Counted from the first letter of the stretch, positions 12,844 through 52,160 are shown. The stretch: 64,000 nucleotides of DNA from Thermoplasmata archaeon (GCA_034667725.1 JAXDQS010000003.1:96001-160000); one strand, 5' to 3'. Numbers and translations: made by a program. Notes: generated by a model not told the origin, from the letters alone.

Positions 12844-13097
12844 CGACGAGCACCGATTCACTCAGATTCAGAAGATTCACACAGAAGTCTGTGGAATCTG
12901 GGTCCAGTCGGCGGCGCCCGACGGGCACTGATTCTCCCAGATTCGGAAAATTCCCGCAGGCCATCTGTGGAATTTTGGCTAGGCCCCGCCAGAACCAAAG
13001 CAAGGTCTGTGGAATCTGTGTGCGTCGGGAACCGAACGGGCACTGATTCACCCAGATTCGGAAGATTCACACAGAATTCTGAATCTGTGTCCAGGCG
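12844..13097. repeat. Modular palindromic intergenic repeat cluster A (short, long, truncated-short units)
   Basis: Three copies of CGACGGGCACTGATTnnCCCAGATTCGGAAGATTCnCACAGA..TCTGTGGAATCTGTGTCCAG; between convergent genes; matches 47967, 51865 and 28712 loci. Confidence 0.92.
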
Positions 13098-13109
13098 ACC
13101 GGGTGGTGG

Positions 13110-14456
13110 TCAGCCCACGACCTTCTCCCACTTCTTCAGGTGTAGCACCGAGCTCAGGGTCTTGCCGCGCCGAATCTCCTCCCGCAGCCGGCCCTCCTTC
13201 TCGTGGACCTCCAGGCTCCGGTTCGCGACCTGCTGCGCCTCCTCCTGCGGGACCACGACGACGCCCATGTCGTCCGCGACGATCCAGTCGCCGCTGCGGA
13301 CCGCCTGGCCGCCGCACTTGACCTCGGCGCCGATCTCGCCGTACCCTTTGGGCTCGCCGGCGTTGGGCACCACCCAGCGGCTCCAGGCGGGGAAGCCCAT
13401 GGCGCGGATGTCGTCGATGTCGCGGATGGCGCCGTCGATGACGACCCCTGCCACGCCTTTGACCTTGCAGGACCAGCTTGCAAGCTCGCCCCACATGGCG
13501 GTGGTGGTGCCGCGCGAGTCGATCACGAGCACGTCGCCAGGCTGCGCGACGTCGATGGCCTCGACGGGTTTGGCCCAGTCGCCGTCGGCGGTGAACACCG
13601 TGACGGCGCGGCCGGCGATGCGCTTGCCTTGCTGGCGGGCCTCGATGCCGAGCATGGCGCCTTTGCGGTGCATGGCGTCGCTGACGTTCGAGGTGCTGCA
13701 TTGGGCGAAGGCGGCGGCCAGCTCGTGCTGGGAGTAGCGCTTGCCGTGGTCGGTGGGCAGGACGGAGCGGTCGCGCATGGCGCGCGCGAGCTTGCTGGCC
13801 TCGGAGGTGATGTCGGCCGCCTTGGTGAGGGCGCCGCCGACGATGACGATGCTGGCGCCAGCCTTGACGCACGGCCCGACGGTCTCGGAGTTGAGGCCGC
13901 CGGCCACCATGACGGGGATGCGGACGGCCGCCACGATGGCCGCCAGGACCTTGAGCGGGTCCTCGCCACGCATCTGCTCGTCGATGCCGAGGTGGAGGCT
14001 GACGTAGTCGCAGCCGAGCGCCTCGGCCTGCCGGGCGCGGGCGAGCTTGTCGGGCACGGACAGGAGGTCCATGTACACCTTGGCGCCGTGCTTGCGGGCG
14101 GCCTTGACGGCTTCGCGGAAGGTGTCGTCGGAGGCGGCGCCGAGGATGCCGACGACGTGGGCGCCGGCCTTGATGGCGATCTCGGTCTCGAACGCGCCGG
14201 TGTCCATGGTCTTCATGTCGGCGACGATGGTGCAGCCGGGGAACTCCTTCCGCAGGGCGCGCACCGCGTCCAGGCCGCACGCCTTGATGAGCGGCGTGCC
14301 CGCCTCGACCCAGGTGGCGCCGCCGGCGACGGCCTCGCGCGCATACTGGAGGGCGCGGTCGAGGTTGACCTCGTCGAGGGCGACTTGCAGCACGGGCCAG
14401 GCCGGCGTGGGCGGGGCTTGCGCGGGCGCCGGGCTGGCCTTGAGCGCCACGGTCAT
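13110..14456 (-). CDS. hxlA: Bifunctional 3-hexulose-6-phosphate synthase / RraA-family protein
   Basis: LQVALD...EAGTPLIK...ADMKTMDTG HPS barrel fused to STSNVSDAM...AMWGELA...DGAIRDID RraA domain. Confidence 0.9.
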   Translation of the reverse strand: MTVALKASPAPAQAPPTPAWPVLQVALDEVNLDRALQYAREAVAGGATWVEAGTPLIKACGLDAVRALRKEFPGCTIVADMKTMDTGAFETEIAIKAGAHVVGILGAASDDTFREAVKAARKHGAKVYMDLLSVPDKLARARQAEALGCDYVSLHLGIDEQMRGEDPLKVLAAIVAAVRIPVMVAGGLNSETVGPCVKAGASIVIVGGALTKAADITSEASKLARAMRDRSVLPTDHGKRYSQHELAAAFAQCSTSNVSDAMHRKGAMLGIEARQQGKRIAGRAVTVFTADGDWAKPVEAIDVAQPGDVLVIDSRGTTTAMWGELASWSCKVKGVAGVVIDGAIRDIDDIRAMGFPAWSRWVVPNAGEPKGYGEIGAEVKCGGQAVRSGDWIVADDMGVVVVPQEEAQQVANRSLEVHEKEGRLREEIRRGKTLSSVLHLKKWEKVVG

Positions 14457-14560
14457 GCGGCTTTCCAGGGCCGAGGCTGGCTTCAAGGTTGGGACGGGTG
14501 CAGGAGGGTGCAGGCCCCGCGCACAAGCCTTTTCCATCCCGGGCCGCCCTGGGCGACCCC

Positions 14561-15964
14561 ATGCAGGTCCGCCTCCTAGCCTTGGCCGCAGCGTTCGTGG
14601 CCGCCACCTTCGCCGGCTGCGTCCAGCCCGACGACAACCTCCCCGTCGGGACCCCGGACGCCACCGTTTCGCTCCTTGCCGGCCCCGCCCTCTGGAACGA
14701 CCCCCAGAACGCGCCGCACGCCAAGTGGGGCTGGGCGACCCTGAGCAACCCGCCCGCCGGCGAGATGCCGCGCTGGTGGCAGCCGTTCAACGGCACCGCG
14801 CTGCCCGAGCACGTCACCGGCTTGGCGCACGTCGTCCAGGCCCCGGGCGTCGAGCAGGGCGCCGGCATCGCGCTGTTCGGCAGCGTCGCGGTGGTCCCCG
14901 ACGACGCCGCCAAGGCCTACTTCGTGGACATCTCGCAGCCGGCCGACCCGAAGGTCCTCGGCACCCTGGAGTCCAGCGGCCGCGGCGCCGCCATCATCGC
15001 CTACCCCGACGGCCGCCTCGTGGCCGTGAGCGCCACCACCGCCGGCTTCGACGTCATGGAGTTCACCGACCCGACCGCCCCCGAGATGCTGTCCCAGGTC
15101 GAGGTCCCCACCCAGGGCGGCCACAAGCTCGGCGTCGTCCCCGGCACGCCCATCGTCTACAACGCCGGCAGCCAAGGCGGCGACCCCATCGCGCCGCTCT
15201 ACAGCCCCGGCCCGTGCAACATCGACATCAGCCAGTGCGTCGGCTACACCGAAATCTACAACCTCACCGACCCGAGCAACCCGGTCCTGGTGCAGAACTT
15301 CCAGAACGGCCTCAGCTGCCACCACGTCTTCTTCTGGAACGCCCCCGACGGCTCCAAGTCGCGCGCCGTGTGCGCCGGCCTCCAGTACACCCAGCTCTGG
15401 GACACCGCCGACCCCGAGCACCCCACGGTCCTGGTCAGCCTGCCCGTCCACCACGGCACCCCCGGCACCCCGAGCGCCATGGTCAGCATCGCCGACTTCA
15501 GCCACTCCGCCGGCCTCAACGCCGCCGGCGACGTGCTCTACGTCGGCGACGAGTCGGGCGGCGGCGCCATCCCGCCCGGCTGCGTGGCCGGCGCCGACAC
15601 CCCCGTCGGCGCCACGGGCACCCCCATCGGCGCGACGTGGTTCTACGACGTCTCCGACGAGGCCAACCCGCAGCTTCTGGGCTACTACACGCCCCTCAAC
15701 GACCCCCGCATCAAGGACCCGCAGACGAGCTGCACCACCCACCACGGCCGTCTCGTCCCCGAGGAGGGCCGCGACCTCTTGGCCATGAGCTACTACGGCT
15801 CCGGCGTCATCCTGGTCGACTTCACCGGCATCGGCGCCGGCACCCTCCCCACCTCCGTCGCCCAGTTCGCCGACGGCTCCAACACCTGGGAGACCTGGTA
15901 CGCCGGCGGCTACCTGTTCACGGGCGACCTGAGCCGCGGCATGGACGTCCTGCGGCTGACCTAA
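14561..15964 (+). CDS. LVIVD-repeat (beta-propeller) lipoprotein
   Basis: Lipobox FAGC; repeats such as YFVDISQPADPKVLG, WFYDVSDEANPQLLG; terminal GDLSRGMDVL; His motifs CHH, SHS, THH. Confidence 0.82.
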   Translation: MQVRLLALAAAFVAATFAGCVQPDDNLPVGTPDATVSLLAGPALWNDPQNAPHAKWGWATLSNPPAGEMPRWWQPFNGTALPEHVTGLAHVVQAPGVEQGAGIALFGSVAVVPDDAAKAYFVDISQPADPKVLGTLESSGRGAAIIAYPDGRLVAVSATTAGFDVMEFTDPTAPEMLSQVEVPTQGGHKLGVVPGTPIVYNAGSQGGDPIAPLYSPGPCNIDISQCVGYTEIYNLTDPSNPVLVQNFQNGLSCHHVFFWNAPDGSKSRAVCAGLQYTQLWDTADPEHPTVLVSLPVHHGTPGTPSAMVSIADFSHSAGLNAAGDVLYVGDESGGGAIPPGCVAGADTPVGATGTPIGATWFYDVSDEANPQLLGYYTPLNDPRIKDPQTSCTTHHGRLVPEEGRDLLAMSYYGSGVILVDFTGIGAGTLPTSVAQFADGSNTWETWYAGGYLFTGDLSRGMDVLRLT

Positions 15965-15982
15965 GGGACCGACCCCAACCCC

Positions 15983-15988
15983 CTTAAG
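15983..15988 (+). promoter_or_regulatory. TATA box of leuC
   Basis: CTTAAG 22 nt upstream of ATG 16011. Confidence 0.55.
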
Positions 15989-16010
15989 TGTCCCCCTCCT
16001 GGGCGCAGCA

Positions 16011-17330
16011 ATGGCTGGGATGACCCTCCCGCAAAAGATCCTGGCGCTCAAGGCGGGCGCCAAGTCCGTGACGGTCGGCGAGGTCGTCGACTGCAAGGTG
16101 GACGTCGCCATGGCGCACGAGGCGCTGGCGCAACTGGTCAAGCCGTTCGCGGAGATGGGCGCCACCAAGGTCTGGGACCCGAACCGCATCGTCGTCCCCA
16201 TCGACCACTGGATCCCCGCGTCGAGCGAGTCGTCGGCCAAGATGCACGCCAGCATCCGCGCCTTCTGCGAGAAGTACGGCCTGCCGCACCTCTACGACAT
16301 CGGCCGCCAGGGCATCTGCCACCAGATCCTCGCCGAGGAGGGCTTCTGCTTGCCGGGCGACCTGGTCGTGGGCACCGACAGCCACACCAACATGGCCGGC
16401 GCCCTGGGCTGCTTCGCCTCCGGCATCGGCCCCACCGAGATGGCCGCCGTGTTCGCCACTGGCGAGCTGTGGCTGAAGGTCCCGCCCACCATCAAGGTCG
16501 ACCTCCAAGGCGAACTGGTCGAGCCCGTCGCCTCCAAGGACGTCGTGCTGTCGCTGATCGGCCAGATGGGCGACGACGGCGCCCGCTACCAGGCCGTCGA
16601 GTTCGGGGGCCCCGCCGTCGACCGGATGCCGATGTACCAGCGCCTCACCCTCACCAACATGACCACCGAGATGGGCGCCAAGGCCGGCCTCATCGCGTGC
16701 GACCAGGAGACCCTCGACTACCTCGACGCCACCCCGATGGCCAGCGGCCGCCGCGCGGAGATCCGCACCCATGCCGGCCTCCGCAGCGACAAGGACGCCA
16801 AGTACGCCAAGACCTACACCCTCGACTGCTCCAAGCTGGAGCCCGTGGTGGCCTGCCCGCAGAGCCCGGAGAACGTCAAGAAGGTCCGCGACGTGTCCGT
16901 GCCCAAGGTCGACCAGGTGTTCATCGGCTCCTGCACCAACGCCCGCTACGAGGACCTGGAGACGGTCGCGGCCATCCTCAAGGGCAACCACGTCAAGAAG
17001 GGCACCCGCCTCGTCGTGTTCCCGGCGAGCACCAGCATCTACCTGCGCGCCCTGGAGTCCGGCATCATCAAGACCATCACCGAGGCCGGCGGCATCTTCA
17101 ACCCCAGTTCGTGCGGCGCCTGCTTCGGCGGCATGGGCGGCGTCCTGGCGGAGAAGGAAGTGTGCGTGAGCACGTCGAACCGCAACTACAAGGGCCGCAT
17201 GGGACACCCCGACTCGATGAGCTACCTCGTTTCGCCCGCGACGGCGGCCGTCACCGCGCTGGAAGGCAAGCTGACCGACCCGCGGCAGTACTTCAGCGAG
17301 GGCGAGCTGCGGAAGAAGGTCGTGGCGTAG
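16011..17330 (+). CDS. leuC: 3-isopropylmalate dehydratase/homoaconitase family, large subunit
   Basis: DH, GICHQ, GTDSHT, IGSCTN, CGACFG, STSNRNYKGRMG motifs. Confidence 0.93.
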   Translation: MAGMTLPQKILALKAGAKSVTVGEVVDCKVDVAMAHEALAQLVKPFAEMGATKVWDPNRIVVPIDHWIPASSESSAKMHASIRAFCEKYGLPHLYDIGRQGICHQILAEEGFCLPGDLVVGTDSHTNMAGALGCFASGIGPTEMAAVFATGELWLKVPPTIKVDLQGELVEPVASKDVVLSLIGQMGDDGARYQAVEFGGPAVDRMPMYQRLTLTNMTTEMGAKAGLIACDQETLDYLDATPMASGRRAEIRTHAGLRSDKDAKYAKTYTLDCSKLEPVVACPQSPENVKKVRDVSVPKVDQVFIGSCTNARYEDLETVAAILKGNHVKKGTRLVVFPASTSIYLRALESGIIKTITEAGGIFNPSSCGACFGGMGGVLAEKEVCVSTSNRNYKGRMGHPDSMSYLVSPATAAVTALEGKLTDPRQYFSEGELRKKVVA

Positions 17331-17341
17331 CCGCACGACCT

Positions 17342-17394
17342 GAACCACGGAACCCACGGGACCACGGGTCCGTGAAATCCGTGCTCCGTGGTCC
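17342..17394. repeat. Short REP-like palindrome (CCACGG x3 / CCGTG x3)
   Basis: GAACCACGGAACCCACGGGACCACGGG-TCCGTGAAATCCGTGCTCCGTGGTCC between convergent leuC and SRPBCC genes. Confidence 0.65.
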
Positions 17395-17403
17395 GCCTCG
17401 CCG

Positions 17404-17847
17404 TCAGGCGTTGGCGGCTTCCCGCTCCAGGTTCGCAAGCTCCTGCGCGTACGCCTTGCGCGCAAACCGCGGCGCGCCCTTCGACTCCAGCCAGCCCTTG
17501 AGCCCGGGCTTGCGCGGCCACACTGTCGCGATCGTCACCTTGCAGCCGCCGTCGTCGTCCGGCTCCAGCAGGAACCGCGTGACTGTGCCGTCGTCGAGCC
17601 GCTCCTCCAGCACCCGGCCCGGCACAGGTTCGATCACGTGCATCCGCAGCACCAGGCGCCGCCCGCCCGCCTTCACGGTCACCCGGAGCACGGTGCCAGC
17701 GCCGCGGCCGCCCTCCTCGACGACGAGGTCCTCGAAGGCGTCGGGCAGGATGCGGGCGTGGCCGCCGCGGTAGTCCACCAGGATGGCCCACAGCCGCTCG
17801 GCGGTGGCGGGGATGCGGCGCGACACGGCGGCGGCGAACGTGGCCAT
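17404..17847 (-). CDS. SRPBCC (polyketide cyclase/START-like) family protein
   Basis: SRRIPATAERLWAILVDY..HARILP..VEEGGRGAGT; 147 aa. Confidence 0.85.
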   Translation of the reverse strand: MATFAAAVSRRIPATAERLWAILVDYRGGHARILPDAFEDLVVEEGGRGAGTVLRVTVKAGGRRLVLRMHVIEPVPGRVLEERLDDGTVTRFLLEPDDDGGCKVTIATVWPRKPGLKGWLESKGAPRFARKAYAQELANLEREAANA

Positions 17848-17898
17848 GCCCGCGCAAAAGGCATGGGGCCTTTCAAGCCCGGCGCCCTGCGCAAGCCC

Positions 17899-18576
17899 AT
17901 GCGCGTCCTTTTGACCGGCGCCACCGGGACCGCCGGCTCGGCCGTGCTGCGCGCCTGCATCGCGGACCCGCGCGTCACGGAGGTGCTGGTGGTGGGCCGG
18001 CGCGCGCCGGAGGCCGTCCACCGCAAGGTCGAGCCGCGCATCCTGCCCGACCTCGGCGACTGGGCCCCGTTGCGCGGCCAGCTCGGCGGCCTCGACGCGG
18101 TGCTGTGGTGCCTCGGCGTGTCCCAGTCGGCGGTCGCGCGCGATGAGCTGCGCCGCGTCACCGTGGACTTCACGGTCGCGGGGGCGCGCGCCGTGCGGGC
18201 CGAGTCGCCGCAGGCGGCGTTCCTGTTCTTGTCGGGCGGCGGCGCCGACCCGCGCGGCCGCAGCCGGCTGCCGTTCGCCATCGAGAAGGGCCGCGCCGAG
18301 ACCGCGCTCGACGCCATGGGCTTCGCGCGGCTGCACCACTTCCGGCCGGGCTACATCCACCCGGAGCGGCCGGGCGCGCGCAAGCCGTGGACCGAGCGCG
18401 TGATGGCGCGGCTGGCGCCCGTGGTGCGGGCCGTGGCGCCCGGCGCGATGGTGGACGCGGGCGACCTGGCGCGCGCCATGGTGCGTGTTGCCGTCGATGG
18501 CCATCCGCTGCGGGTGCTGGAGAACCGCGACGTCCGGGCCGCGGCGGGCCTGGTGCGCGGGGCGCGGCCCGTCTAG
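17899..18576 (+). CDS. NAD(P)H-binding oxidoreductase (CC3/TIP30-YraR-like atypical SDR)
   Basis: MRVLLTGATGTAGS Rossmann motif; WCLG, KGRAE, FRPGYI. Confidence 0.88.
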   Translation: MRVLLTGATGTAGSAVLRACIADPRVTEVLVVGRRAPEAVHRKVEPRILPDLGDWAPLRGQLGGLDAVLWCLGVSQSAVARDELRRVTVDFTVAGARAVRAESPQAAFLFLSGGGADPRGRSRLPFAIEKGRAETALDAMGFARLHHFRPGYIHPERPGARKPWTERVMARLAPVVRAVAPGAMVDAGDLARAMVRVAVDGHPLRVLENRDVRAAAGLVRGARPV

Positions 18577-19363
18577 CCCAGCCGGCGGTATTGCGTCACG
18601 GCCAAGGCAGCGAACACGGCGACCAGGCCGGCGCACCACGCCACCGTGACGAGCGGGTCGGTGCCGGGGTCGGTGCCGAGGCTCCAGGAGCGCACCGCGT
18701 CGGAGGCGATCGAGACGGGGTTGTTGCTCGCGAACGCCTGGAGCCAGCCGGGCATGCTCTCGACGGGGACGAAGATGCTGCTTGCGAACACGACGGGGAA
18801 CGACCAGGTGAAGCCCGCCATCTCGGCCGCCTGGGTGGACTTGACCAAGAGGCCGATGGTGGCCGCGATCCAGCTGAAGGCGTAGCCGACGAGGACGACG
18901 AGGCCAAGGGCGAGGACGGCCTCGACCAAAGTGCCGTGGAAGCGGTAGCCGACGAGGTAGCCGACGCCGACCATGATGAGGGCGCTCGCGATGTTGCGGA
19001 CCGAGTCGCTCAAGGTGCGCGCCGACAGCACGGTGCCGCGGGCCATGGGCAGGCTGCGGAAGCGGTCCATGACGCCCTTCTGCATGTCCTCCGCGAGGTT
19101 GATGCCTGATCCCAGGCTGCTGAAGATGACGGTCTGCACGATGATGCCGGGCAGCAGGTAGTCGGTGTAGTCGCCGTTCGGGGTCTGGATGGCGCCGCCG
19201 AAGACGAACACGAACAGCAACGTGAACATCACCGGCTGCACGACGGCCATCGAGATCCAGTACGGGTTGCGCGAGTAGTATAGCAGGTTGCGCTTGGTCA
19301 TCAGCCAAGTGTCGGAGAAGCCCCAGCCGAAGCGGCGGGCGCGGGTCGAGGAGGCGGTCGCGG

Positions 19364-19367
<4 letters not shown>
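18573..19367 (-). CDS. ABC-2 type transporter permease (DrrB-like)
   Basis: QPVMFTLLFVFVFGG, YLLPGI, MDRFRSLPM, NPVS; six TM helices. Confidence 0.92.
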
Positions 19368-20374
<1,007 letters not shown>

Positions 20375-20408
20375 GGCGGCGGCGACTGGATCGGGGTTGA
20401 AAACCGTC

Positions 20409-20663
20409 TCAGTGGCTCCGAGGGCGCCTGCGCCTCGGCTTGCCTCTGGGCCCGAGCAGCTCCTCCGCCCGCCGCACCGCCTCGTCGCGCGACAGCCCCG
20501 CCTGCATCCCGAAATGGATTTGCAGGGCCCGTTGCAGCGCCGGGTTCGAGCTTGCGCCGGGGAACCGGTCGAGCGGGACCTTCACCGGCGGCGCCGGCCG
20601 CGCCGAACGCGTCCTCGGCGCGGGGGCCGCCACGACGGCCCGACCCTTCTGGGGCATGGCCAT
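20409..20663 (-). CDS. Small basic hypothetical protein
   Basis: 84-aa frame MAMPQKG...NPALQRALQIHFGMQAGLSRDEAVRRAEELLG filling the gap between genes. Confidence 0.5.
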   Translation of the reverse strand: MAMPQKGRAVVAAPAPRTRSARPAPPVKVPLDRFPGASSNPALQRALQIHFGMQAGLSRDEAVRRAEELLGPRGKPRRRRPRSH

Positions 20664-20708
20664 CCAAGTTCTGCGGCCGGGGAGATAACCTTGGCTTTGC
20701 CGGTCATG

Positions 20709-20714
20709 CTTAAG
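20709..20714 (+). promoter_or_regulatory. TATA box of 20738-leuD operon
   Basis: CTTAAG 23 nt upstream of ATG 20738. Confidence 0.55.
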
Positions 20715-20737
20715 CGGGCCGCCTCCGTGGGCGCCGC

Positions 20738-21663: not shown

Positions 21664-21734
21664 GCCTGCCGCCCGCGGAACCCACGGCGCCCGGAACCGC
21701 CGGTTCAAGCCGTCCCGCGGACCAACCTGAAGGC

Positions 21735-22211: not shown

Positions 22212-22245
22212 CAAAGATGATGGGCACAGCCCTAGGTCGGCCCGC

Positions 22246-22644: not shown

Positions 22645-22704
22645 GCCCCGTGGGGCGCGAAACCAACCAGACCGTCGATTTTTTCCCTAGGCCCCGCAAA
22701 TGCC

Positions 22705-23274: not shown

Positions 23275-23286
23275 GACGGCCGACCC

Positions 23287-28711: not shown

Positions 28712-28790
28712 ACTGGACACAGATTCCACAGACCGCCTTTTTGGACAGGTTCTGTGGAATCTGTGTCTAGTTGGGGCGGCTGTGTCTAGT
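28712..28790. repeat. Single palindromic repeat unit (cluster D) of the same family
   Basis: ACTGGACACAGATTCCACAGA...TCTGTGGAATCTGTGTCTAGT near-perfect inverted arms, then partial duplication TGTGTCTAGT; between convergent genes. Confidence 0.85.
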
Positions 28791-41254: not shown

Positions 41255-41308
41255 GGGTCCATCGGCAGGCAGAGGCGGGCGTGGAATGAAGGTTCTGGAG
41301 GCGGCGGG

Positions 41309-41956: not shown

Positions 41957-41990
41957 GATGGTTCCAATGGGACGGCCCAAGGCATAAGCC

Positions 41991-42638: not shown

Positions 42639-42697
42639 CGCGCGTCCGACCGTGCGGGGCGCGAAAAGGTTTGTAGGATGCGCCTGTGGCGCGCCCG

Positions 42698-43327: not shown

Positions 43328-43337
43328 ACATCCAAGG

Positions 43338-44975
43338 TCAGGCCAGGGGCAGCTTCGCGATGGCCGCCTCGGCGTCCGCCCGCGCGTCGGCCTCCCAGCC
43401 GTCCGCGAACCACGGCCGCTCCATCGTTGCAGTGTAGACCTTGACCGCCGCGCCGTCGCGGGTGTCGGGCCAGACCGGGTGGGCGGCGCGCCACGACGAG
43501 TCGATGTCGTTGTAGTCGCCGAGGAAGATCATGCCGTTCTGGTGGTGGCTCAGGGCCGGGTCCCAGCCGCCGTCGTCGGCCGCGCGCACGTCCACGGGGA
43601 CGCTCCAGGTGGCGCCGCCGTCGAGCGAGTAGCTGTACATCTGGGCGATGCGGGCGTGCTCCGGCAGGTCGCCGTTGGCCGGCACCATGTCGTGGGTGGC
43701 CTCCATCCAGGACACGTCGAGGACGCCGCCGGGGCTCACCGAGATTGCGGGCATGAGGCGCCAGTGCGGGTCGGGTTCGGAGACCAGCACCGGGTCCGAC
43801 CAGGTGGTGCCCTTGTCGAAGCTGGCGGCCACGAAGACGCCGGAGCCGTCGCCCGACGCGCAGCCGTCGCCCCAGTCGTCGAGGCAGGCGTCGTGCCACA
43901 CCACGTAGATGGCGTCGGCGAACGGCGACGCAGGGTTGCGGTCGGTGGCCATGGCCGGGAAGCCGGTGACGCGGTCGCGGGGGCTCAGGCCGGGGTGCTG
44001 GGCGGCGTGGACCTGCAGGATAGCGCGGTCCTCGTCCCAGGTGGCGCCCGTGTCGGTGCTGCGCCGCATGTGCACGTCGCTGCCGCTGGTCCACATGGCG
44101 TAGACCTCGGCGCCGGTGCCGACGTCCAAAAACGAGCCTTGGCCGGCGGTGCCGACGAGGGTGGCGAGCACCTCGGGGTCGGCGTAGGTCTTGCCGCCGT
44201 CGGTGCTGCGGAAGTAGACGTTGCCGGGCGCGAGGCTGGCGAGCCACATCACGTGGATGGTGCCGTCGGCGGACGCCGCGATCCAGCCCTTGTCATGGAA
44301 CGAGACGGGGTAGGAGCCCTCCAGCACGGGCGTGAAGGTGTGGAAGGTGTCGCCGCCGTCGTCACTCACGGCCACGATCTGGGTGGCGCGGTTGAAGGCC
44401 CAGTCGTTGAGGGCGCCGTCGGGCAGCTCGTCCTCGCCGGTCTTGCTGCCAGTGACGGGGTCGGTCTGGTACGCCATCAGCAGGTAGTACAGGTTCCCGT
44501 TGACGTCGAAGTAGGCCACCGGGTCCGTCGTGCACCAGAAGGTGGAGGCGTAGTTGGGCGTGAAGCCCGTCGGGTCCGACAGGGCGCGCCAGGGGGAGCC
44601 GTCGAAGCTGCGGTCGGCGTACGTCCTGCCGCCGTCGTGGGTCACGTAGACGCCGTCCCACACGCAGTCGCCCGCGTCCGGCGGGTAGTAGTCCTTGGCG
44701 CCGCCCACGACGTTGCGCGGGTCCTTCGGGTTCACGGCGATGGTGACCTCGTTGCCCTGCCGGCCCTCGTCGGGCGTCATGTTGAAGTCGCAGGCGGCGA
44801 GGCAGAGCGGGAACGGCACGGGCAGGCCGTTGGCGTCGTAGGCGGTGTAGTTGAAGCCGGAGCCGTGGCGCAGGTCGCGCTCGAACGCGGGCGGCGGCGA
44901 AGTGGTCTCGGGGCCGGTGCCGACGCAGCCGGCGACGAGGGCGGCCAACAGGAGGAACGCCACGAAGCGCGTCAT
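43338..44975 (-). CDS. Sialidase-like BNR/Asp-box repeat lipoprotein
   Basis: Lipobox VAGC; Asp boxes SDDGGDTF, STDGGKTY, STDTGATW, SFDKGTTW, SLDGGATW; FLGDY. Confidence 0.85.
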   Translation of the reverse strand: MTRFVAFLLLAALVAGCVGTGPETTSPPPAFERDLRHGSGFNYTAYDANGLPVPFPLCLAACDFNMTPDEGRQGNEVTIAVNPKDPRNVVGGAKDYYPPDAGDCVWDGVYVTHDGGRTYADRSFDGSPWRALSDPTGFTPNYASTFWCTTDPVAYFDVNGNLYYLLMAYQTDPVTGSKTGEDELPDGALNDWAFNRATQIVAVSDDGGDTFHTFTPVLEGSYPVSFHDKGWIAASADGTIHVMWLASLAPGNVYFRSTDGGKTYADPEVLATLVGTAGQGSFLDVGTGAEVYAMWTSGSDVHMRRSTDTGATWDEDRAILQVHAAQHPGLSPRDRVTGFPAMATDRNPASPFADAIYVVWHDACLDDWGDGCASGDGSGVFVAASFDKGTTWSDPVLVSEPDPHWRLMPAISVSPGGVLDVSWMEATHDMVPANGDLPEHARIAQMYSYSLDGGATWSVPVDVRAADDGGWDPALSHHQNGMIFLGDYNDIDSSWRAAHPVWPDTRDGAAVKVYTATMERPWFADGWEADARADAEAAIAKLPLA

Positions 44976-44999
44976 CGCCGCGCGACTTGGCGGGGGCGG

Positions 45000-45737
45000 T
45001 TAAAGGGTTGCCTCGGGCGGCGCCGTGAACACGTCCAGCCCGAGCTGCTTCGGCGCCACCAGGTCCCTCGCCGTCGCCCATGTCGTGCGGGTCCCCTCGG
45101 GCAGCTCGCGGAACTCGGCCCAGTACGCCTTGAGGAACGCCTGCGTCAGCGGGTCGGAGGCGTAGCCGGACCCAAGCGGCAGGTTGAGCTTGCGCTCCAG
45201 CCGGCGGGCCAGCTCCGCGATGGCCTTGTCGCGCGCGACCTTGGCGACGATGCTGGCGGCGCCCACGATGGGGAACTTGAGGTCGGCGCCATGCTGCGAC
45301 ACCACCTCGGTCCCCGGCGGCAGCGCGGTGGCCAACTCGCGGCCGAAGCGCGCCTCGTTCACGTCCGCCGCGTCGATCCACGCCTTGTGCGGCGCGAGCG
45401 TCCGCGCGATGTCCTGGAAGCGGCGCATCTCGATGACGTTGAGGCTGGTGCCCTCGCGCCGCTCGGCGTCCAGCACGTCGGCGTCCACGACCCGGACCTC
45501 GATGCGCACCGACGATTCGGCCCGGAGGGCGCGGTCGAGGGCGTTGCGGCGGTCGGGCGACAGGAGCTTCGAGTCGGTGCAGCCCAGCCGCTTGAACAGC
45601 TTGGGCTCGGCGCTTGCGACCCCGGCCATCACGATGGGGCCCATGACCGGGCCGCGGCCGGCCTCGTCCATGCCGGCGCACACGGGCATCGTCGCCAGCA
45701 CGGCAGGGTCGATGGGGGCCTTGCGCCGCGGCGCCAC
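45000..45737 (-). CDS. rnhB: Ribonuclease HII
   Basis: GMDEAGRGPVMGP, DSKLL, IDAAD, AASIVAKV.RD, GSGY.SDP. Confidence 0.95.
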   Translation of the reverse strand: MAPRRKAPIDPAVLATMPVCAGMDEAGRGPVMGPIVMAGVASAEPKLFKRLGCTDSKLLSPDRRNALDRALRAESSVRIEVRVVDADVLDAERREGTSLNVIEMRRFQDIARTLAPHKAWIDAADVNEARFGRELATALPPGTEVVSQHGADLKFPIVGAASIVAKVARDKAIAELARRLERKLNLPLGSGYASDPLTQAFLKAYWAEFRELPEGTRTTWATARDLVAPKQLGLDVFTAPPEATL

Positions 45738-45781
45738 GATGGGTTCGACTCGGCCGCCCTCCTTGAAGCCTGGGGTCGGGC

Positions 45782-45787
45782 CTTAAA
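45782..45787 (+). promoter_or_regulatory. TATA box of NfeD gene
   Basis: CTTAAA 23 nt upstream of GTG 45811. Confidence 0.5.
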
Positions 45788-45810
45788 CGCCGACGGACCC
45801 ATGGCGGCCT

Positions 45811-46266
45811 GTGCTGGACAGTCCTGGCGTGTGGACCGCGACGACGTTCCTCATCCTGGGCATCCTGTTCCTCCTGGTCGAGGTGTTCAACCCCGGCTTC
45901 TTCATCGCGGTGCCGGGCGGGACGCTGTTCATCATGGGCGGCATCGGCCTGCTTGCGCCCGACCTGATGTTCGGCTCGCCGTGGGCCTGGCTGCTCTGGC
46001 CGCTGGCCGCCGTGCTGTCCACCGGCGCCAACCTGTTCCTCTACAAGCGCTGGGCCCCCGCCGGCGACCGGCCCTTGACGCTGGGCAGCGACTCCTTGCC
46101 CGGCCAGGTCGCCACCGTGGTGACCCCCATCGCCCCCGGCGGCCGCGGCGAAATCCGCATCGCCGGCCAGACCTGGTCCGCCCGCTCGGCCGTCGCCATC
46201 CCGGCCGGCGCCGAGGCGCGCATCGTGCGCGTCGAGGGCGTGTACGCCGTCGTCGAGCCCGCGTAG
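45811..46266 (+). CDS. NfeD family protein (short form)
   Basis: LLVEVFNPGFF TM region; C-terminal OB fold GEIRIAGQTWSAR...VRVEG. Confidence 0.88.
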   Translation: MLDSPGVWTATTFLILGILFLLVEVFNPGFFIAVPGGTLFIMGGIGLLAPDLMFGSPWAWLLWPLAAVLSTGANLFLYKRWAPAGDRPLTLGSDSLPGQVATVVTPIAPGGRGEIRIAGQTWSARSAVAIPAGAEARIVRVEGVYAVVEPA

Positions 46267-46328
46267 GCTGCACACTCTAGCAGGCCCTCCAGCAGGCTTA
46301 TCCTGCCCGCGGCGGGCTGCGTGGACCC

Positions 46329-46889
46329 ATGCGCCCTGCATCCCTGGCCCTCCCCGCCTTGGCCCTCCTTCTGCTGCTGCCCGCCGCCCAAGCCCAGGTG
46401 CCCTCCGAGATTCCCTTCATGATCACCAACGCCCAGGTCGCGGACGCCATCGGCCCCGGCGAGACCACCAAGGTGTCGTTCCAGGCGGTCCGCGCCTGCT
46501 CCACCACCTCCCCCATCCTGCCCGCCGGCACCCTGCAACTGGAGCGCGCCGCGAGCCCCTTCGTCACCCTCACCGGCGCCATGGACGTCCCCGTGCCGGA
46601 GCACAACTGCCTCACCAGCGGCCACCAGGCCATCGCCTTCGAGCTGCAGGCCACGGCCGGCCCCGAGATCCCTGAAGGCATCGCCTCCGAGGCCGTCCTG
46701 CTGCGCGCCCACGTCGACCAGGCGTCGCCGACGCACACCACCACCTCCGAGTCGGCCATCAGCTTCATCGTGCCCTTCAAGGCCAAGCCCGTCCCCGACT
46801 CCTACATCGGCCCCGTCGAGGAGAGCCCCGTGCTGGCGCCCGGCGTCATCCTGGCGGCCCTCGGCGCCCTGGCCTCCCGCAAGCGTTAG
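46329..46889 (+). CDS. Secreted protein with C-terminal sorting/anchor segment
   Basis: Signal peptide ...LLLLPAAQA; C-terminus EESPVLAPGVILAALGALASRKR. Confidence 0.75.
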   Translation: MRPASLALPALALLLLLPAAQAQVPSEIPFMITNAQVADAIGPGETTKVSFQAVRACSTTSPILPAGTLQLERAASPFVTLTGAMDVPVPEHNCLTSGHQAIAFELQATAGPEIPEGIASEAVLLRAHVDQASPTHTTTSESAISFIVPFKAKPVPDSYIGPVEESPVLAPGVILAALGALASRKR

Positions 46890-47911
46890 TTGGAGTCGGC
46901 CAGGAACTCGTCGAACACGTAGTGCTCCATCGGCCGGATGCCGAGAACGATCTCCAGCTCCTGCGGCGTCAGGAACGGCTGCTTGTAGCGGCCCTGGTCG
47001 TCGATCGGCACCCGCGGGCACGCGACCCCCACGAAGGCGTCGAGGTGGCGGAAATAGAGCAGCGTCTCCGGCGAGATCTGCTTGTTCTGGATGATGTAGC
47101 CGGTCTTGCCGTGCGCCTGGAGCTGGGCGAGCACCTTCTTGGCGAGGTTGAACCGCATCTGGCCCGCCTTGGTGGAGACCACGATGCCGAACGACTTGGC
47201 CTGCTTGGCGTTCCCGATGGCGGCCCAGCGCTGCTTGAGGATGCGGCCCTTGGCCTCCGTCAGCGTCCGCACCGTGTTGGTGTAGGGGTCCGCCGCCGTG
47301 ATGCGCTTCTCCGTCTCCAGCGCGAGGGCGAGCGGGTGGAAGTCGCCGCTGCCGATGAAGATGAACTCGTCCACGTCGCACTTGACCGCCGCGATGACGT
47401 TGCAGCCCAGAAGCTGGCCGCGCAGGGCGGTGCGCTTGTCGCCCAGCATCGTGACCGGCTCGAAGCCGTGCTCCCGAAGGATGCGTTCCGCGACGTCGAG
47501 CTTGTGGACGTGCTGCGCCGTGGTGGTGACGCCGATGCGGGGGCCCTTCATCTGGGCGCAGGCGGCCTTCACGACCTCCTCGATCGGGTGGACCGAGTGG
47601 GCGGGGACGTAGTAGACCTGGACGCCGAAATCCGTTTTGACGGACGGCATGGGACTGTGCCCGAAGTGGATCATCACCTCGATGCCGAGCTTCGCCATCT
47701 CGTCGTCGCACAGGTCGCAGGCGCCATAGCACGGGTCGGCCGAGACGACGGGCAGGGCGCCGGTCTCGCGCTGGACGATCTCCGCGATGTGGGTGCCGTA
47801 GTCCCGCAGGCCGTCGGGGAACTGGAGGCCGATGCTCTGGAGGCCCGGGTGCGCCTGCTTGATGCGAGGCAGCAGCTCCTCGAAGTCGAGGTGGTAGCCG
47901 AACAGCTCCAT
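46886..47911 (-). CDS. dph2: Diphthamide biosynthesis radical enzyme Dph2
   Basis: LQFPDGL, PCYGACD, HFGH, GQLLGC, GDFH, ACPRVPIDD. Confidence 0.95.
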   Translation of the reverse strand: MELFGYHLDFEELLPRIKQAHPGLQSIGLQFPDGLRDYGTHIAEIVQRETGALPVVSADPCYGACDLCDDEMAKLGIEVMIHFGHSPMPSVKTDFGVQVYYVPAHSVHPIEEVVKAACAQMKGPRIGVTTTAQHVHKLDVAERILREHGFEPVTMLGDKRTALRGQLLGCNVIAAVKCDVDEFIFIGSGDFHPLALALETEKRITAADPYTNTVRTLTEAKGRILKQRWAAIGNAKQAKSFGIVVSTKAGQMRFNLAKKVLAQLQAHGKTGYIIQNKQISPETLLYFRHLDAFVGVACPRVPIDDQGRYKQPFLTPQELEIVLGIRPMEHYVFDEFLADSN

Positions 47912-47966
47912 GGGCAAGCGTCCGACGAGGGGGGCGGTTTAGGGCTTTGCCTCCGGGGGCGGGACG

Positions 47967-48221
47967 CGACGGGCACTGATGTTCCCAGATTCGGAAGATT
48001 CCCACAGACGGTCTGTGGAATTTTTGCAGGCCCCGCCAGAACCAAAGCCAGGTCTGTGGAATCTGTGTGCGTCGGGAACCGAACGGGCACTGATTTTCTC
48101 AGATTCGGATGATTCCCACAGAGGCCTGTGGAATATGTGTCCAGTCGGCGGGACGCGACGAGCACTGATTTTCCCAGATTCGGAAGATCTCCACAGAACT
48201 CTGTGGAATCTGCGTCCAGTC
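47967..48221. repeat. Modular palindromic intergenic repeat cluster B (long, short, short units)
   Basis: Same units and linkers as 12844-13097 in different order; just downstream of ABC permease stop. Confidence 0.92.
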
Positions 48222-48228
48222 AGCAGCC

Positions 48229-49479
48229 CTACTCGTACGCAAGGGCCTGGATCGGCTGGATCCGCGTCGCCCGCCGTGCCGGCAGGAACCCCGCCGCGGC
48301 GCCGACGAACAGGCCGATGGCCAGGCAGATCCCGACCCATTCGTAGGGAATCACAGGCGGGATGCCGAACAGGCCCCGCACGATGCCCATCCCAAGCCCG
48401 AGGCCCAGCCCGATGGCCAGCACCGAGCCCAGGATGCCGATCAGCATCGACTCGACCAAGAACAGGCGCAGCACCTGGCCGTTCTTGGCGCCGATGGCCT
48501 TGAGGACGCCGATCTCGCGGGTGCGCTCGGTGACGCTCACCAGCATGATGTTGGCGATGCCGATGGCGCCGACCACGAGCGAGACGCCGCCGATGGCGCC
48601 CACGAACAGGGTCACCTGGCCGAAGGTGCGGGAGATGCTGGCCTGGATGTCGTCGGCGGTCGCGACCAGCATCGACTGGCCGTCCTGGCGCAGCCGGTTG
48701 GCGTCGGAGCCGTGCTCGACGAAGGCGGTGACGCGGTCGCGCACCTCGTCCACCTTGCGGACGTCGGCGGCCACGACGTTGAGCGCGGAGAACACGCGGA
48801 CGGTGGCGCCGGTGGACGGGCTTGCGCGGGTGGTGGCGTAGAACGGGTCGACGGGGACGAAGACGCGGCCGTTGCGGTCGCCGAACAGCGACTCGTCGCG
48901 GGTGAGGACGCCGGCGACGGTGGCGGCCTGGGTGCGGCCGTCCTGGAAGCGGACGGTGATGGCGTCGCCTGCCTGGACGGAGCCGTTGCCGAGCAGTTGG
49001 GCGACCCCGGCGCCGAGGACGAGCTGGGGCTTGCCGGACTCGAAGGCCTTGCCGGCGGCGTAGCCGGAGGGCTCGCGAAGCTCGTCGGCGTCCGGGGTGG
49101 TGGCGGTGAGGCGCTCGAAGGTCAGCTCCTTGCCGTTCCATGCCAGGCTGCTGGCGGGCAGCTCGGCGGACACCAGGACGCGCTCGACGCCGTCCAAGGC
49201 GGCGATGCGGTCGATGTCGACCTGGGTGAAGATGTTGCACGCCGTCATGCAGTCCGGCGGCCCTTGGTCGACGGGGGTGAGGGTGCTGGTGACGAAGATG
49301 GATTTCTGGTCGACCGAGTCGAACTGGCTGACGATGGTCTCCTCGAAGCTGGCGCCGATGACGACGACGCCGAGGACGGAGCCGATGCCGATGATGACGC
49401 CGAGGATGGTGAGGATGCTGCGCACCTTGTGGCCCCAGAGGTTGCTGGCGGCCATCCGGAGGGTCTCGCCGAACCGCAT
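48229..49479 (-). CDS. ABC transporter permease (MacB/FtsX family)
   Basis: [52 protein letters not shown]. Confidence 0.94.
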
Positions 49480-50258
49480 CAGGGCCGCCTCCGGACGGGA
49501 TGGGGCCCGCTGATTGGCAAGCGGCGGCCAGGCAAGGGCACCGAGGGCGCCGGCGCGGGGGGCGCCTTGGGGTGGACCTGTTCGTCGCGCTCCAGCACGC
49601 CGTCCTGGATGCGCAGGATGCGCTGGGCGTGGCGGGCCATCGACTCGTCGTGCGTGACCTGGATGATGGTGCGGCCCTGCGCGTGCAGCCGGCCGAACAG
49701 CGCCATGAGCTCGCGGCTGGTGGCGGAGTCGAGGTTGCCCGTCGGCTCGTCGGCAAGCAGGATGGGCGGGTCGAGCGCGAGGGCGCGGGCGATGGCGACG
49801 CGCTGCTTCTGGCCGCCCGAGAGCTGGGCGGGCCGGTGGTGCAGGCGGTCGCCGAGCCCGACGGCGTCGAGGAGCTCGGCGGCGCGGGCCTTGCGGCGCG
49901 CGGCCGGCCAGCCGGCGACGGCCATGGGGAGGGCCACGTTCTGCTGGGCGGTGAGGCGCGGCATGAGGTTGAAGCCCTGGAACACGAAGCCCAGCAGGTC
50001 GCGGCGGGCCTCGGCGGCGGCGTCGGGGGTGAGCTTGCCGACGTCGCGGCCCATGAGGCGGAGGGTGCCGGCGGTGGGGCGGTCGAGGATGCCGACCAGG
50101 TGCAGCAGGGTGGACTTGCCGGAGCCGCTGGGGCCCATGATGGAGACGAAGGCGCCGCGCGGGATGGTGAAGCCAAGGCCCTTGAGGACCTCGACGTCGC
50201 TTTCGCCGGCGCGGTACGATTTCCGCAGGCCGGCTGCGACGATGGCGGGTTCGCCCAC
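49479..50258 (-). CDS. ABC transporter ATP-binding protein (LolD/MacB family)
   Basis: [37 protein letters not shown]. Confidence 0.95.
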
Positions 50259-50265
50259 GCTCAGG

Positions 50266-50835
50266 TCAAGGCGTGCCGGACTTCAGGGCTTCCTTCCAGC
50301 CGGTGATGCGCAGGTGGGCGATGACCGGGAGGAACAGGTCGCCAAGGCGCTTGCCCTTGGGCGTGAGGGTGTACTCGACCCGGACGGGGACCTCGGGGTA
50401 CACAGTGCGGGCGACGATGCCGAGGCTCTCCAGCTCCTTGAGGCGGATGCTGAGGGTGCGGCTGCCGATGCCGGGGAGGTTCTCCTTGAGCTCGTTGAAG
50501 CGGCGGGGCTCCTTCATCCGCAGCAGGAAGCACACCTCGATGCTCCACTTTTGCAGCAGGGGGTTGAGGGCCTCGACGGACTTGCGGACCTCGCGCTCCA
50601 GGTCGCCGAAGCCGGTGAGCCAGGTGACCACTTGGTCCATGGCCTTGCGGTGGCCTTCGGCGAGGTCGTCGAGGAAGGCGTCGAGCTGGCCGATCATGAC
50701 CTCGTTGAGCTCCTGCTGTTCCTTGCTGGGCCGCGGCTTGGAGGGGTCGGGGAGGTCCTTCGGGCTGGGCGGGCGGGGGGCCCGCTGCTGGCGCGCGCCC
50801 TTGGTGTCGTCCGGGATACCTGGAGTAGCGCCCAT
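50266..50835 (-). CDS. HxlR-family winged-helix transcriptional regulator
   Basis: KWS....L....RRFNEL...GI..RTLS.RLKELE..GIV.R..YPEVP.RVEY.LT.KG; N-terminal extension. Confidence 0.9.
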
Positions 50836-50934
50836 CACTGCCCCCCTTATACCGCCCTTTCACATCTAGGTTCTGTTCAGAAAGCAGTGTCGCTTATGGC
50901 GGCTGCTTCCAAAATGAAACCGCAGGCCCTTCCC

Positions 50935-51861
50935 ATGGACGAACTCGACACCCCAAGCAGCGACCCCTTCCCGTTCCACCATGACAACGGATGGAGCAAG
51001 GCCCTCGTCCTGGTCTTCGTCATCCTCCCCCTGCTGGCGTTCGGCTTCGGCGTCTGGTCCTTCTGGGGCGTCGGCGTCGGCGTGTTCGAGCTGACCCTGC
51101 TGGCGGTCATGTGGACCGTCACCGGCCTCGGCATCAGCGTCGGCTTCCACCGCATGCTCACCCACCGCGCCGTCACCCTGCGCGCCCCCGCCCGCTTCAC
51201 CATGCTGGTCCTCGGCACCATGTCGATGCAGGGCCCCGCCTCCGACTGGGCGGCCACCCACATCCGGCACCACGCCAAGGCCGACCGCGAAGGCGACCCC
51301 CACAGCCCCCTCGAAGGCTTCTGGCACGCCCACTTCGGCTGGCTCCTCCGGGACCGCTTCGTCCGCGACGGCCTGGCCCACGAGAAGCTCATGGCCGACC
51401 CCGTCACCCGCTTCGTCAGCAACACCTGGGTCGTCTGGGCCACCCTCGGCATGGTCATCCCCGGCATCGTCGGCTGGCTCGTCGTCGGCGGCGTCTGGGG
51501 CTTCGTGGACGGCCTGCTGTGGGGCGGCTTCGTCCGCGTCTTTTTGGGCCACCACATCACCTGGAGCGTCAACTCCCTCGGCCACATGTTCGGCACCCGG
51601 CCGTTCGCCATCCAGGACCGCGCCACCAACAACTTCCTCGTCGCCCTCCTGGGCTGGGGCGAAGGCTGGCACAACAACCACCACGCCTTCCCCCGCGCCG
51701 CCTTCATCGGCATGCGCTGGTACCAGGTCGACGCCGGCAAGATGCTGATTCGCGTCCTGCAGGTCCTCGGGCAAGTGCGCAGCATCCACATGCCGACGCG
51801 CGAGGAGCGGCAGGCGAAGCGCGCCCGGCGGGCCAAGAGCAAGAAGCCGGCGGCGGCCTGA
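50935..51861 (+). CDS. Acyl-CoA (delta-9-type) fatty acid desaturase
   Basis: His boxes HRMLTH, HIRHH, HNNHH; DPHSP, GEGW; TM helices; alternative starts 50896/50914. Confidence 0.92.
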
Positions 51862-51864
51862 GCG

Positions 51865-52160
51865 AACTGGACACAGAGTTCACAGACTTCTGTGGGAATC
51901 TTCCGAATCTAAGGGAATCCGTGCCCGTCGCGTCTCCCGCCGACTGGACACAGATTCCACAGACTTCTGCGGAGATCCTCCGAATCTGGGTGAGTCAGTG
52001 CCGTTCGGCTCCCGGCGCACACAGATTCCACAGACCTGGCTTTGGTTCTGGCGGGGCCTGCAAAAATTCCACAGACCGTCTGTGGGAATCTTCCGAATCT
52101 GAGAAAATCAGTGCTGGTCGCGCCCCAGGATGGGCACAGATTCCACAGACCCTTCTGGGA
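51865..52160. repeat. Modular palindromic intergenic repeat cluster C (inverted orientation)
   Basis: Reverse complement reads partial arm, long, short, short units; between convergent desaturase and hpt. Confidence 0.92.

Follow-up and report, generated by a model that had tools for sequence, protein, structure and literature searches.

What are the repeats that fill four intergenic gaps of a single archaeal contig, and what could have spread them there? The question is raised by a stretch of 64,000 nucleotides (the window) from a Thermoplasmata archaeon (GCA_034667725.1 JAXDQS010000003.1:96001-160000), in which four loci between positions 12,844 and 52,160 carry clusters of a palindromic unit. 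The original prediction, made from this DNA alone, saw in them a non-autonomous repeat family dispersed between the genes of an archaeon, and likened it to the bacterial repetitive extragenic palindromes (REP) and bacterial interspersed mosaic elements (BIME). The first of these statements is borne out by the copies found throughout the genome, by an archaeal Dph2 gene and by relatives in the Thermoplasmatota. As to the agent of the spread, the evidence leans towards a different partner: on balance, the arrays are probably gene-less, non-autonomous members of a repeat system that combines a nuclease with a hairpin, and the single-copy GxxExxY nuclease gene of this genome (Pfam family PF13366) would be the likely partner acting in trans.

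The window is part of contig 3 (C3) of a 2.32-Mb genome bin (G000) of 26 contigs, with 71% G+C and a completeness of 90%. Gene calling relied on the codon usage of this genome itself, from which a model was trained (2145 genes, 90% coding), and neighbours were named by Pfam. The Dph2 (diphthamide synthase) gene and an HVO_0163-type helix-turn-helix gene indicate that the host is an archaeon. The closest Dph2 loci, at 90-93% protein identity, belong mostly to Thermoplasmatota/Thermoplasmata, two being labelled Halobacteriales and one 'bacterium'; with the archaeal small-subunit model, no rRNA was detected in the bin. Six window units were made into a profile, which retrieved, genome-wide with nhmmer, 98 copies at E<1e-5 in 34 clusters, each in a single orientation, and a module scan that included partial copies located 36 arrays and 12 symmetric-hairpin loci, locus 2 among the latter, which together occupy 9.8 kb or 0.42% of the genome. 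The whole family amounts to about 120 copies. The 17-mer of the right arm (at most one mismatch) gives 119 matches and its reversed control none, which excludes a chance origin of the arm matches. With about 98 units in all, the family extends beyond the four loci, and its placement is strongly biased. Not one of 52 clusters runs into a predicted gene. Convergent genes flank 20 of the 36 arrays, against a background of 17% (binomial p = 1.7e-7), and 8 of the 12 symmetric hairpins (p = 1.8e-4); neighbouring 3' ends are also nearer (median gap 27 nt) than 5' ends (84 nt). Where the flanking genes are co-directional, the array follows their orientation four times and opposes it seven times, without strand preference.

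The genome-wide consensus of the short unit (about 65 nt) is GCGACGAGCACTGATTCCCTCAGATTCGGAAGATTCCCACAGA-AC-TCTGTGGAATCTGTGTCCAGTCGGCGGC. Its left part holds three direct heptamers, (C/A/T)(A/T)GATTC, about 10 nt apart, and its right part one inverted heptamer; an inner hairpin of 7-11 bp (GATTCC-C-ACAGA / TCTGTGGAATC) closes on a variable loop of 2-4 nt, and the outer ends form an imperfect terminal inverted repeat with 13 of 17 positions paired. The long unit (about 110 nt) has some 44 added bases, TTTT(T)G..GGCCCCGCCAGAACCAAAGC.AGG, with a second right arm. The consensus, the inner hairpin, the imperfect ends, the recurrence of GATT(C) every 9-10 nt and the insert of the long variant had all been noticed in the window, and all were found again. 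Other parts of that first description need correction. A unit common to four loci is present at loci 1, 3 and 4, locus 2 being a different form made of two inverted right-arm copies. The long variant does occur once in each large window cluster, but between zero and three times per array in the genome at large. The three cluster layouts are as described and short/long order does vary among arrays, but a shuffling of units was overstated: full units within an array are co-oriented, head-to-tail, and long-short-short blocks are colinear at seven loci. Nor is the linker GGGAACCGAA a general feature, with only six copies genome-wide.

Comparison of the copies with one another points to spread rather than to local duplication. 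The mean identity of 68 full units is 84%, and units are hardly closer within arrays (0.848) than between arrays (0.841). The nearest relative of a unit stands in another array in 64 of 68 cases and on another contig in 40 of 68. Six other loci repeat the long-short-short block of array 3 over its full 255 nt, colinearly and with 83-88% identity. These copies have therefore dispersed, often as pre-built blocks, and the arrays are not local tandem amplifications. On five contigs (C1, C2, C4, C11 and C12; 749 kb) there is no array where about 11 would be expected (chi-square p = 0.002), C3, C6 and C10 being rich; this reflects either a bias between regions or a bin drawn from two populations.

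The comparison took in 40 related genomes, 12 of them congeners (G001-G012) and 28 from outside the genus. None of the 40 matches the 255-nt array. The exact 23-mer of the unit is absent from a collection of species-representative genomes, two unit patterns are absent from the JGI metagenomes and the hairpin pattern is absent from IMG/VR; among the genomes searched, the unit is restricted to this species. The comparison of empty and filled sites, which the original prediction had proposed, places this repeat at loci 3 and 4 here and not in congeners. Locus 3 is empty in three of them (L002, L004 and L009), where the permease-Dph2 neighbourhood is kept with a gap of 60-72 nt as against 317 nt here. 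At locus 4 there is no spacer in G007 and one of about 60 nt without a clear hairpin in G009, while four other congeners carry hairpins of other 9-mer families (Table 1), two of them side by side in G012. The gene end orthologous to locus 2, that of the dehydrogenase gene, likewise bears a hairpin in two congeners, of the form (CGCAGAGNN)3 in G003 and (CACTGAANN)3 in G008. Such recurrently occupied gene ends are either insertion hot spots or old hairpins overwritten by the currently active family. The right arm has a wider range than the unit: its 17-mer (at most one mismatch) is found in 11 of the 12 congeners, with 1-14 copies, and in one of the 28 outside genomes, the reversed control being zero everywhere, so that copy number within the genus runs from 0-14 in the congeners to 119 in G000.

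The window holds no candidate mobiliser, as had been stated at the outset, and the search was extended to the whole bin. PF13366 has exactly one match there, on contig 5 (E = 1.8e-34), and its product is a TIGR04256 'GxxExxY protein' (127.9 bits). Directly 3' of this gene stand four to five tandem units of about 97 nt, composed of CACACAGATTCCACAGA, a 30-nt loop, AATTCCYCAGATTC and TCTGTGGAATCTGTGT. Of the 119 right-arm matches, four fall in the 450 nt that follow the gene on its 3' side and the other 115 elsewhere in the genome, the stop codon itself falls inside a GAATCTG heptamer, and a ATTCCYCAGATTC piece of the gene-side units matches the left arm of the window units. A copy of the repeat next to a GxxExxY gene, which the original prediction had recommended looking for, thus exists in the form of hairpin units with family arms adjoining the sole PF13366 gene, on a contig other than that of the window. 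Searches of G000 for other enzymes returned no TnpB, no 23S-IVS four-helix protein gene, no gene bounded by the unit ends (CGACGAGCAC...GTCCAGTCG) and no small Ssn-like GIY-YIG nuclease, the lone GIY-YIG match being in a 945-aa open reading frame (ORF) that is not near any repeat. The genes found between pairs of right arms were rejected as mobilisers, only Lrp/AsnC-type and other ordinary genes being present there.

The association of PF13366 genes with arms of this design can be observed well outside this genome. The family is present in all 12 congeners (1-8 copies each) and in one of the 28 genomes outside the genus; it occurs in none of 12 genomes from sister genera of the same family. 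At least 14 of 19 PF13366 loci in relatives (18 from congeners and one in G033, outside the genus) have inverted arrays on both sides, each of two to three tandem 9-mers, and a gene enclosed in this manner is also seen at most of 20 bacterial PF13366 loci. The 9-mer word mostly differs from one gene copy to the next, with words including CCACGAATT, CACCGATGT, CGCCGATTA, CGCGGATTA, CACTGAAGA and ACCACGGGGA. The nuclease closest to that of G000, in G007 (53% identity), has the arms ACACAGATTCAGCAGATTC / GAATCTGCTGAATCTGTGTCCAG, the latter being the end of the G000 right arm. Gene-less copies that share the arms of a gene are likewise not peculiar to the right arm of G000: the arm word AATTCGTG has 68 copies in G001, 37 in G009, 35 in G012, 17 in G010 and none in G000, and ATCCGCG has 50, 33, 57, 1 and 0 in the same genomes. 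Arm families are thus present in many copies where the matching nuclease is encoded.

This association is not limited to archaea. The original prediction had mentioned CACAGATT...AATCTGTG palindromes around bacterial GxxExxY genes, and this was borne out: such arms were found at 39 loci across phyla, and both an Anaerolineae bin and Flavobacterium soli have a PF13366 gene enclosed by them. At these 39 bacterial loci the exact hairpin ACAGATTCCACAGA-N(2-30)-TCTGTGGAATCTGT occurs for a chance expectation of about 5e-4, in Acidobacteriota, Bacteroidota, Chloroflexota, Verrucomicrobiota and a betaproteobacterium, with arms of the form (CCACAGATT)n. When the G000 nuclease was used as a phmmer query, none of the 39 loci had a matching gene within 8 kb; these loci are gene-less copies. 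PF13366 is present in all five bacteria with CCACAGATT hairpins that were tested, and in two of the five, the Anaerolineae bin and Flavobacterium soli, the gene is enclosed by CACAGATT arms. In a tree of 39 nucleases those with CAGATT-type arms cluster, requiring 3 changes against 7.5 in shuffles, a value that none of the 500 shuffles reached. The nucleases of three bacteria (Anaerolineae, Promineofilum and Flavobacterium soli) nest within the clade of the archaeal genus, apart from the other PF13366 genes of their own genomes, which suggests a transfer between domains together with the arm type. Protein identity and the sharing of arm k-mers are weakly correlated (Spearman 0.21, permutation p = 0.009).

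In the predicted nuclease, six residues are invariant across 20 homologues (G24, E27, Y30, D67, E77 and K79), corresponding to GxxExxY and D...ExK. The AlphaFold (AF2) model (pLDDT 86) presents a compact alpha-beta nuclease core and a disordered tail that is encoded by arm-like repeats. A sequence search of the PDB returned no solved relative of the nuclease. The best structural match of the model is the Cas4 protein SSO0001 (PDB 4ic1; Foldseek E = 1.3e-4, TM 0.52, over the core of about 100 residues only), followed by lambda exonuclease, RecE, the AddAB nuclease domains and Hjc. The D-ExK catalytic motif is common to both proteins, but the 147-aa protein described here, unlike Cas4, shows neither an Fe-S cysteine cluster nor a CRISPR context. 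The model is that of a minimal Cas4/RecB-like PD-(D/E)xK fold with an intact D-ExK triad, and such a structure suits a nuclease whose substrates are DNA ends, flaps or hairpins.

On the basis of these observations the following course of events can be proposed. The ancestral form would be a symmetric hairpin with arms of tandem 9-mers, (CCACAGATT)n, and in full elements such arms would enclose the nuclease gene. In this species an asymmetric derivative, its left side bearing three direct heptamers and its right side a single inverted one, would have multiplied to about 100 copies, often as pre-assembled long-short-short blocks, landing in the gaps by gene 3' ends. We infer that the nuclease binds or cuts these repeats, and that what it recognises in the unit is the ACAGA/TCTGT stem together with the phased (C/A)AGATTC heptamers. 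A PD-(D/E)xK nuclease cannot by itself join strands or transpose DNA, so the spread would need host recombination or repair: breaks made by the nuclease at hairpins or cruciforms could be repaired by recombination or copying, in a homing-like process or by gene conversion, with a preference for existing hairpins. A role that serves the host, like the one attributed to the Ssn/NTS pair discussed below, is equally possible.

Several points weigh against this proposal, among them the inability of such an enzyme to transpose DNA by itself. In G000 the repeats are found only 3' of the nuclease gene, the 5' side offering just a weak arm-like match, ATTCCCAGAT; the gene-side units are a separate 97-nt subtype and not the 65-nt unit of the window; and the position of a single gene beside one of about 50 clusters would, taken alone, be expected by chance in about 5% of cases. 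Co-occurrence at the level of the genus is a single evolutionary event, the relatives not being independent. In three of the five bacteria with CCACAGATT hairpins, no PF13366 gene examined had those exact arms. Movement of a copy between near-identical strains was not observed. The edges of hairpins and arrays show no target-site duplication, and the empty sites of other species are too diverged to give exact junctions. Finally, the genome is 90% complete, so an unassembled mobiliser may exist.

Three other explanations were weighed. The main rival, which has real support, assigns the repeats to the host: they would be functional hairpins or protein-binding platforms at gene 3' ends (for transcription stop, mRNA stability or chromatin proteins), kept by selection and homogenised by concerted evolution, the nuclease being incidental or the homogenising agent itself. 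As a complete account it appears unlikely, but a host role at gene ends is compatible with the nuclease-repeat reading and does not exclude it. The strong bias to 3' ends and convergent gaps argues for such a role, as do the orthologous 3' ends occupied by different 9-mer families (locus 4 in G001, G008, G011 and G012; locus 2 in G003 and G008) and the array that follows, 4-6 nt past the stop codon, each of two desaturase paralogues. A DNA-binding protein would fit the phasing of the heptamers, which is about 10 nt. The heptamers are conserved above 90% across copies together with the stem, the inter-heptamer spacers and the loop being conserved to only about 50%, a pattern that is read as a probable constraint on sequence words, exerted by a binding protein, or as the trace of several founder subfamilies, rather than as that of a structured RNA. 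The elements are, on the other hand, dispensable to judge from the empty sites of several congeners, their number passes from 0-14 to 119 within one genus, no orientation relative to the neighbouring genes is preferred, and 749 kb of contigs are devoid of arrays.

The idea of a structured RNA in the 3' untranslated region, which the original prediction had also entertained, found no support, whether in covariation, in the fold of the short unit, in array orientation or in Rfam. Of the changes counted at pairs of the inner stem, one is compensatory, 35 alter one side yet preserve the pair and 47 destroy it; these are about what transitions alone would give. There is no covariation on that stem, and RNAalifold found no consensus structure. 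The symmetric hairpin of locus 2 folds strongly as single-stranded DNA (-23.8 kcal/mol, z = -8.2), the long unit moderately (z -2.3) and the short units weakly (z -0.5 to -1.6). In Rfam 15, at the gathering score, only two tRNAs match in the window, and array 3 has no match at E<=1 along its length. The hairpin of the long unit followed by T5, which speaks for a host function, is the family's sole terminator-like feature, most units having no T-tract; since the T5 tract is on the long unit alone and the orientation data (4 same, 7 opposite) do not fit, a general terminator role was rejected.

The second explanation, which we regard as improbable, takes the units for classical miniature inverted-repeat transposable elements (MITEs), that is, deletion derivatives of an insertion sequence (IS) moved by its DDE or other transposase, since lost or unassembled, the neighbourhood of the nuclease being a coincidence. 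The units do resemble MITEs by their imperfect terminal inverted repeats (13/17), their small size, their lack of coding capacity and their many dispersed copies at 84% mean identity, present here and missing from the same sites in other species. One DDE_Tnp_1 gene exists in G000, on a contig of 3 kb, and the assembly is only 90% complete. That contig, however, carries no unit, no parent IS or gene bounded by unit ends was found in G000, target-site duplications are not visible, and co-oriented, head-to-tail arrays that disperse as multi-unit blocks are atypical of MITEs. The same arm design around PF13366 genes in archaea and bacteria is a further point against this explanation. The third, a true REP/BIME-RAYT (REPIN) system whose Y1 transposase (the REP-associated tyrosine transposase, RAYT) was missed by an assembly that is 90% complete, would agree with extragenic, palindromic, high-copy, clustered and 3'-end-biased repeats, but is very improbable given 0 matches to PF01797 in G000 by a search whose control recovers it in 6 of 14 known genomes, the lack of a GTAG tag, units of 65 nt in uniform and not alternating orientation, and arms that match those around PF13366 genes instead.

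The nuclease-repeat reading can be compared with the systems already described. REP/BIME and REPIN/RAYT elements (PMC2817692, PMC3116915, PMC3733652) share with the present family extragenic palindromes in clustered mosaic arrays, a 3'-end bias, expansion within a lineage and a single-copy partner gene that is itself flanked by repeats. Here, however, there is no Y1 transposase, the units of 65-110 nt are arranged head-to-tail, and the candidate partner nuclease cannot join strands. According to PMC3733652, a REP is a palindrome of 20-40 bp with an unpaired GTAG or CGTC tag beside the stem. The units have no GTAG, and their CGTC is confined to the distal terminal repeat, reading GCGACG on the given strand and separated from the inner stem by about 30 nt. 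The analogy drawn by the original prediction consequently holds for the 3'-end bias and fails as to membership. CGTC-type REPs are reported to be without a dedicated transposase (PMC3733652), and one of them, the Neisseria dRS3, is presumably identical with NTS, which was linked with Ssn afterwards. For REP-like palindromes of archaea, the one study found is a computational survey (PMC12306157).

The closest behaviour is that of the NTS/SRM repeats and Ssn, a GIY-YIG nuclease (cd10448) of Neisseria and many other bacteria (PMC11893778). There too a small single-domain nuclease gene is flanked by a hairpin repeat whose gene-less copies between genes number from tens to hundreds, the variants of the repeat follow those of the nuclease, and repeat-rich genomes carry the gene. 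The present pair differs by its enzyme, a PD-(D/E)xK GxxExxY protein and not a GIY-YIG one, by phased tandem 9-mer arms in place of a short dRS3-type stem-loop and by its archaeal host. The arrays would accordingly behave like REP/RAYT or NTS/Ssn elements while belonging to neither, to judge from enzyme and repeat anatomy, both of which differ. In the literature searched, which included few subscription journals, the arm sequence was not found, nor was a pairing of GxxExxY nucleases with phased-9-mer hairpins. GxxExxY, PDDEXK_3 or PF13366 appeared only in passing there, apart from an entry in PMC3424549 that lists the function of PF13366 as 'Unknown' with 'multiple transfers'.

The layout of the four window loci is given in Table 1; all four were present where the original prediction had placed them. 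Gene calls and Pfam names agree that they lie past stop codons, loci 1, 2 and 4 between convergent genes and locus 3 between co-directional ones, and with 52-57% G+C they are indeed AT-richer than the genome (71%) and than all intergenic DNA (66%). Array 1 starts 7 nt past the stop codon of a T2SSF-like gene and ends 13 nt before that of the HUMPS/RraA gene on the minus strand, in which an orotidine-5'-phosphate decarboxylase/HUMPS-family domain is fused to an RraA-like aldolase domain. Locus 2 separates an isocitrate/isopropylmalate dehydrogenase-family gene from a cation-efflux gene. Array 3, between two genes of the minus strand, is 3' of the stop codon of a MacB/FtsX permease gene and 5' of the start of Dph2; array 4, which is 94% identical to it across 126 nt, lies between a fatty-acid desaturase gene (plus strand) and a phosphoribosyltransferase gene (minus strand). 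A composite transposon formed by arrays 3 and 4 around a 3.7-kb segment was rejected: congeners without the arrays keep the flanking gene order. The desaturase gene has a paralogue elsewhere on C3 (75% nucleotide identity), two copies being found in congeners too, and both paralogues of G000 are followed by an array in the same orientation, which suggests that a desaturase-type gene end is a preferred landing site. Further along the window, and preceded at a short distance by a tRNA-Leu gene, a 2234-aa ORF with at least three tandem 654-nt repeats probably encodes a surface protein built of repeated domains.

A second hairpin family is present in G000, its arms (CTCGGTGNN)x3 = TTCGGTGGTCTCGGTGCCCTCGGTGGAT giving 17 matches. 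On contig 12 two of its inverted arms, 1 kb apart, surround the gene of a 202-aa winged-helix regulator, and at three sites of C3 an arm stands directly before CACAGATTC-family units, forming mosaic clusters with the family of the window. A PF13366 gene accompanying these arms was not found in the G000 assembly.

Table 1. Coordinates and composition of the repeat loci, neighbouring genes and related features (positions are those of the window unless a contig is named)
Feature	Position	Strand	Composition or remark
Array 1	12844-13097	+	short, long, short
Array 1, short unit	12846-12911	+	
Array 1, long unit	12919-13027	+	with insert
Array 1, short unit	13035-13097	+	after GGGAACCGAA linker
HUMPS/RraA fused gene	13110-14456	-	adjoins array 1
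Locus 2	28712-28790	no strand	symmetric hairpin: CACTGGACACAGATTCCACAGA, 18-nt loop, TCTGTGGAATCTGTGTCTAGTTGG, then two partial right-arm ends
Array 3	47967-48221	+	long, short, short
Array 3, long unit	47967-48076	+	
Array 3, inner hairpin of long unit	48002-48028	+	CCACAGA-CGG-TCTGTGG then AATTTTTG
Array 3, short unit	48083-48146	+	after GGGAACCGAA linker
Array 3, short unit	48157-48221	+	
Fatty-acid desaturase gene	50914-51861	+	
Desaturase paralogue	G000:C3:395142-396032		
Array 4	51865-52160	-	inverted partial arm, then long, short, short
Array 4, inverted partial arm	52133-52160		
Array 4, long unit	52126-52017	-	
Array 4, inner hairpin of long unit	52085-52059	-	twin of the array 3 hairpin
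Array 4, short unit	52006-51943	-	
Array 4, short unit	51932-51866	-	
tRNA-Leu gene	55049-55130	-	
2234-aa ORF	55326-62030		tandem 654-nt repeats at about 56960-58960
PF13366 gene	contig 5, 135449-135892 (Pfam match 135539-135874)	-	
Locus 4 gap, G001			hairpin of 9-mer family ATCCGCG
Locus 4 gap, G008			hairpin of CGCGAATT
Locus 4 gap, G011			hairpin of CGGGAATT
Locus 4 gap, G012			hairpins of CGCAGATT and CACAGATTT, two families side by side
Second hairpin family	C3:347752/347799		
Second hairpin family	C3:609531/609587		
Second hairpin family	C3:631105/631150		
Second hairpin family	C10:224560/224589		
Second hairpin family	C12:23792 and 24807		
Second-family arm before CACAGATTC-family units	C3:387997, C3:403303, C3:494180		mosaic clusters

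The nuclease-repeat reading of these arrays can be extended, more tentatively, to a wider proposition, which we hold to be possible without yet calling it probable. GxxExxY nucleases and phased-9-mer hairpins would constitute a widespread and undescribed partnership of archaea and bacteria, in which every variant of the nuclease would read a 9-mer of its own, the pair would be passed on horizontally and successive families would take over the same gene-end hot spots; the present archaeon would then be in a burst phase, with a new asymmetric unit that forms arrays. Partnerships of a repeat with an enzyme, such as REP with RAYT or NTS with Ssn, shape bacterial genomes, and the same logic would be at work here with a different enzyme fold and in an archaeon. 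The arms would also account for many orphan intergenic hairpins across phyla, and the different repeat families found at orthologous gene ends of sister species offer a direct handle on repeat turnover. The Ssn family is reportedly the source of the first site-specific single-stranded DNA nucleases. If it is true that each GxxExxY variant reads its own 9-mer, this family would in turn provide a ready-made set of programmable-looking, sequence-specific nucleases.

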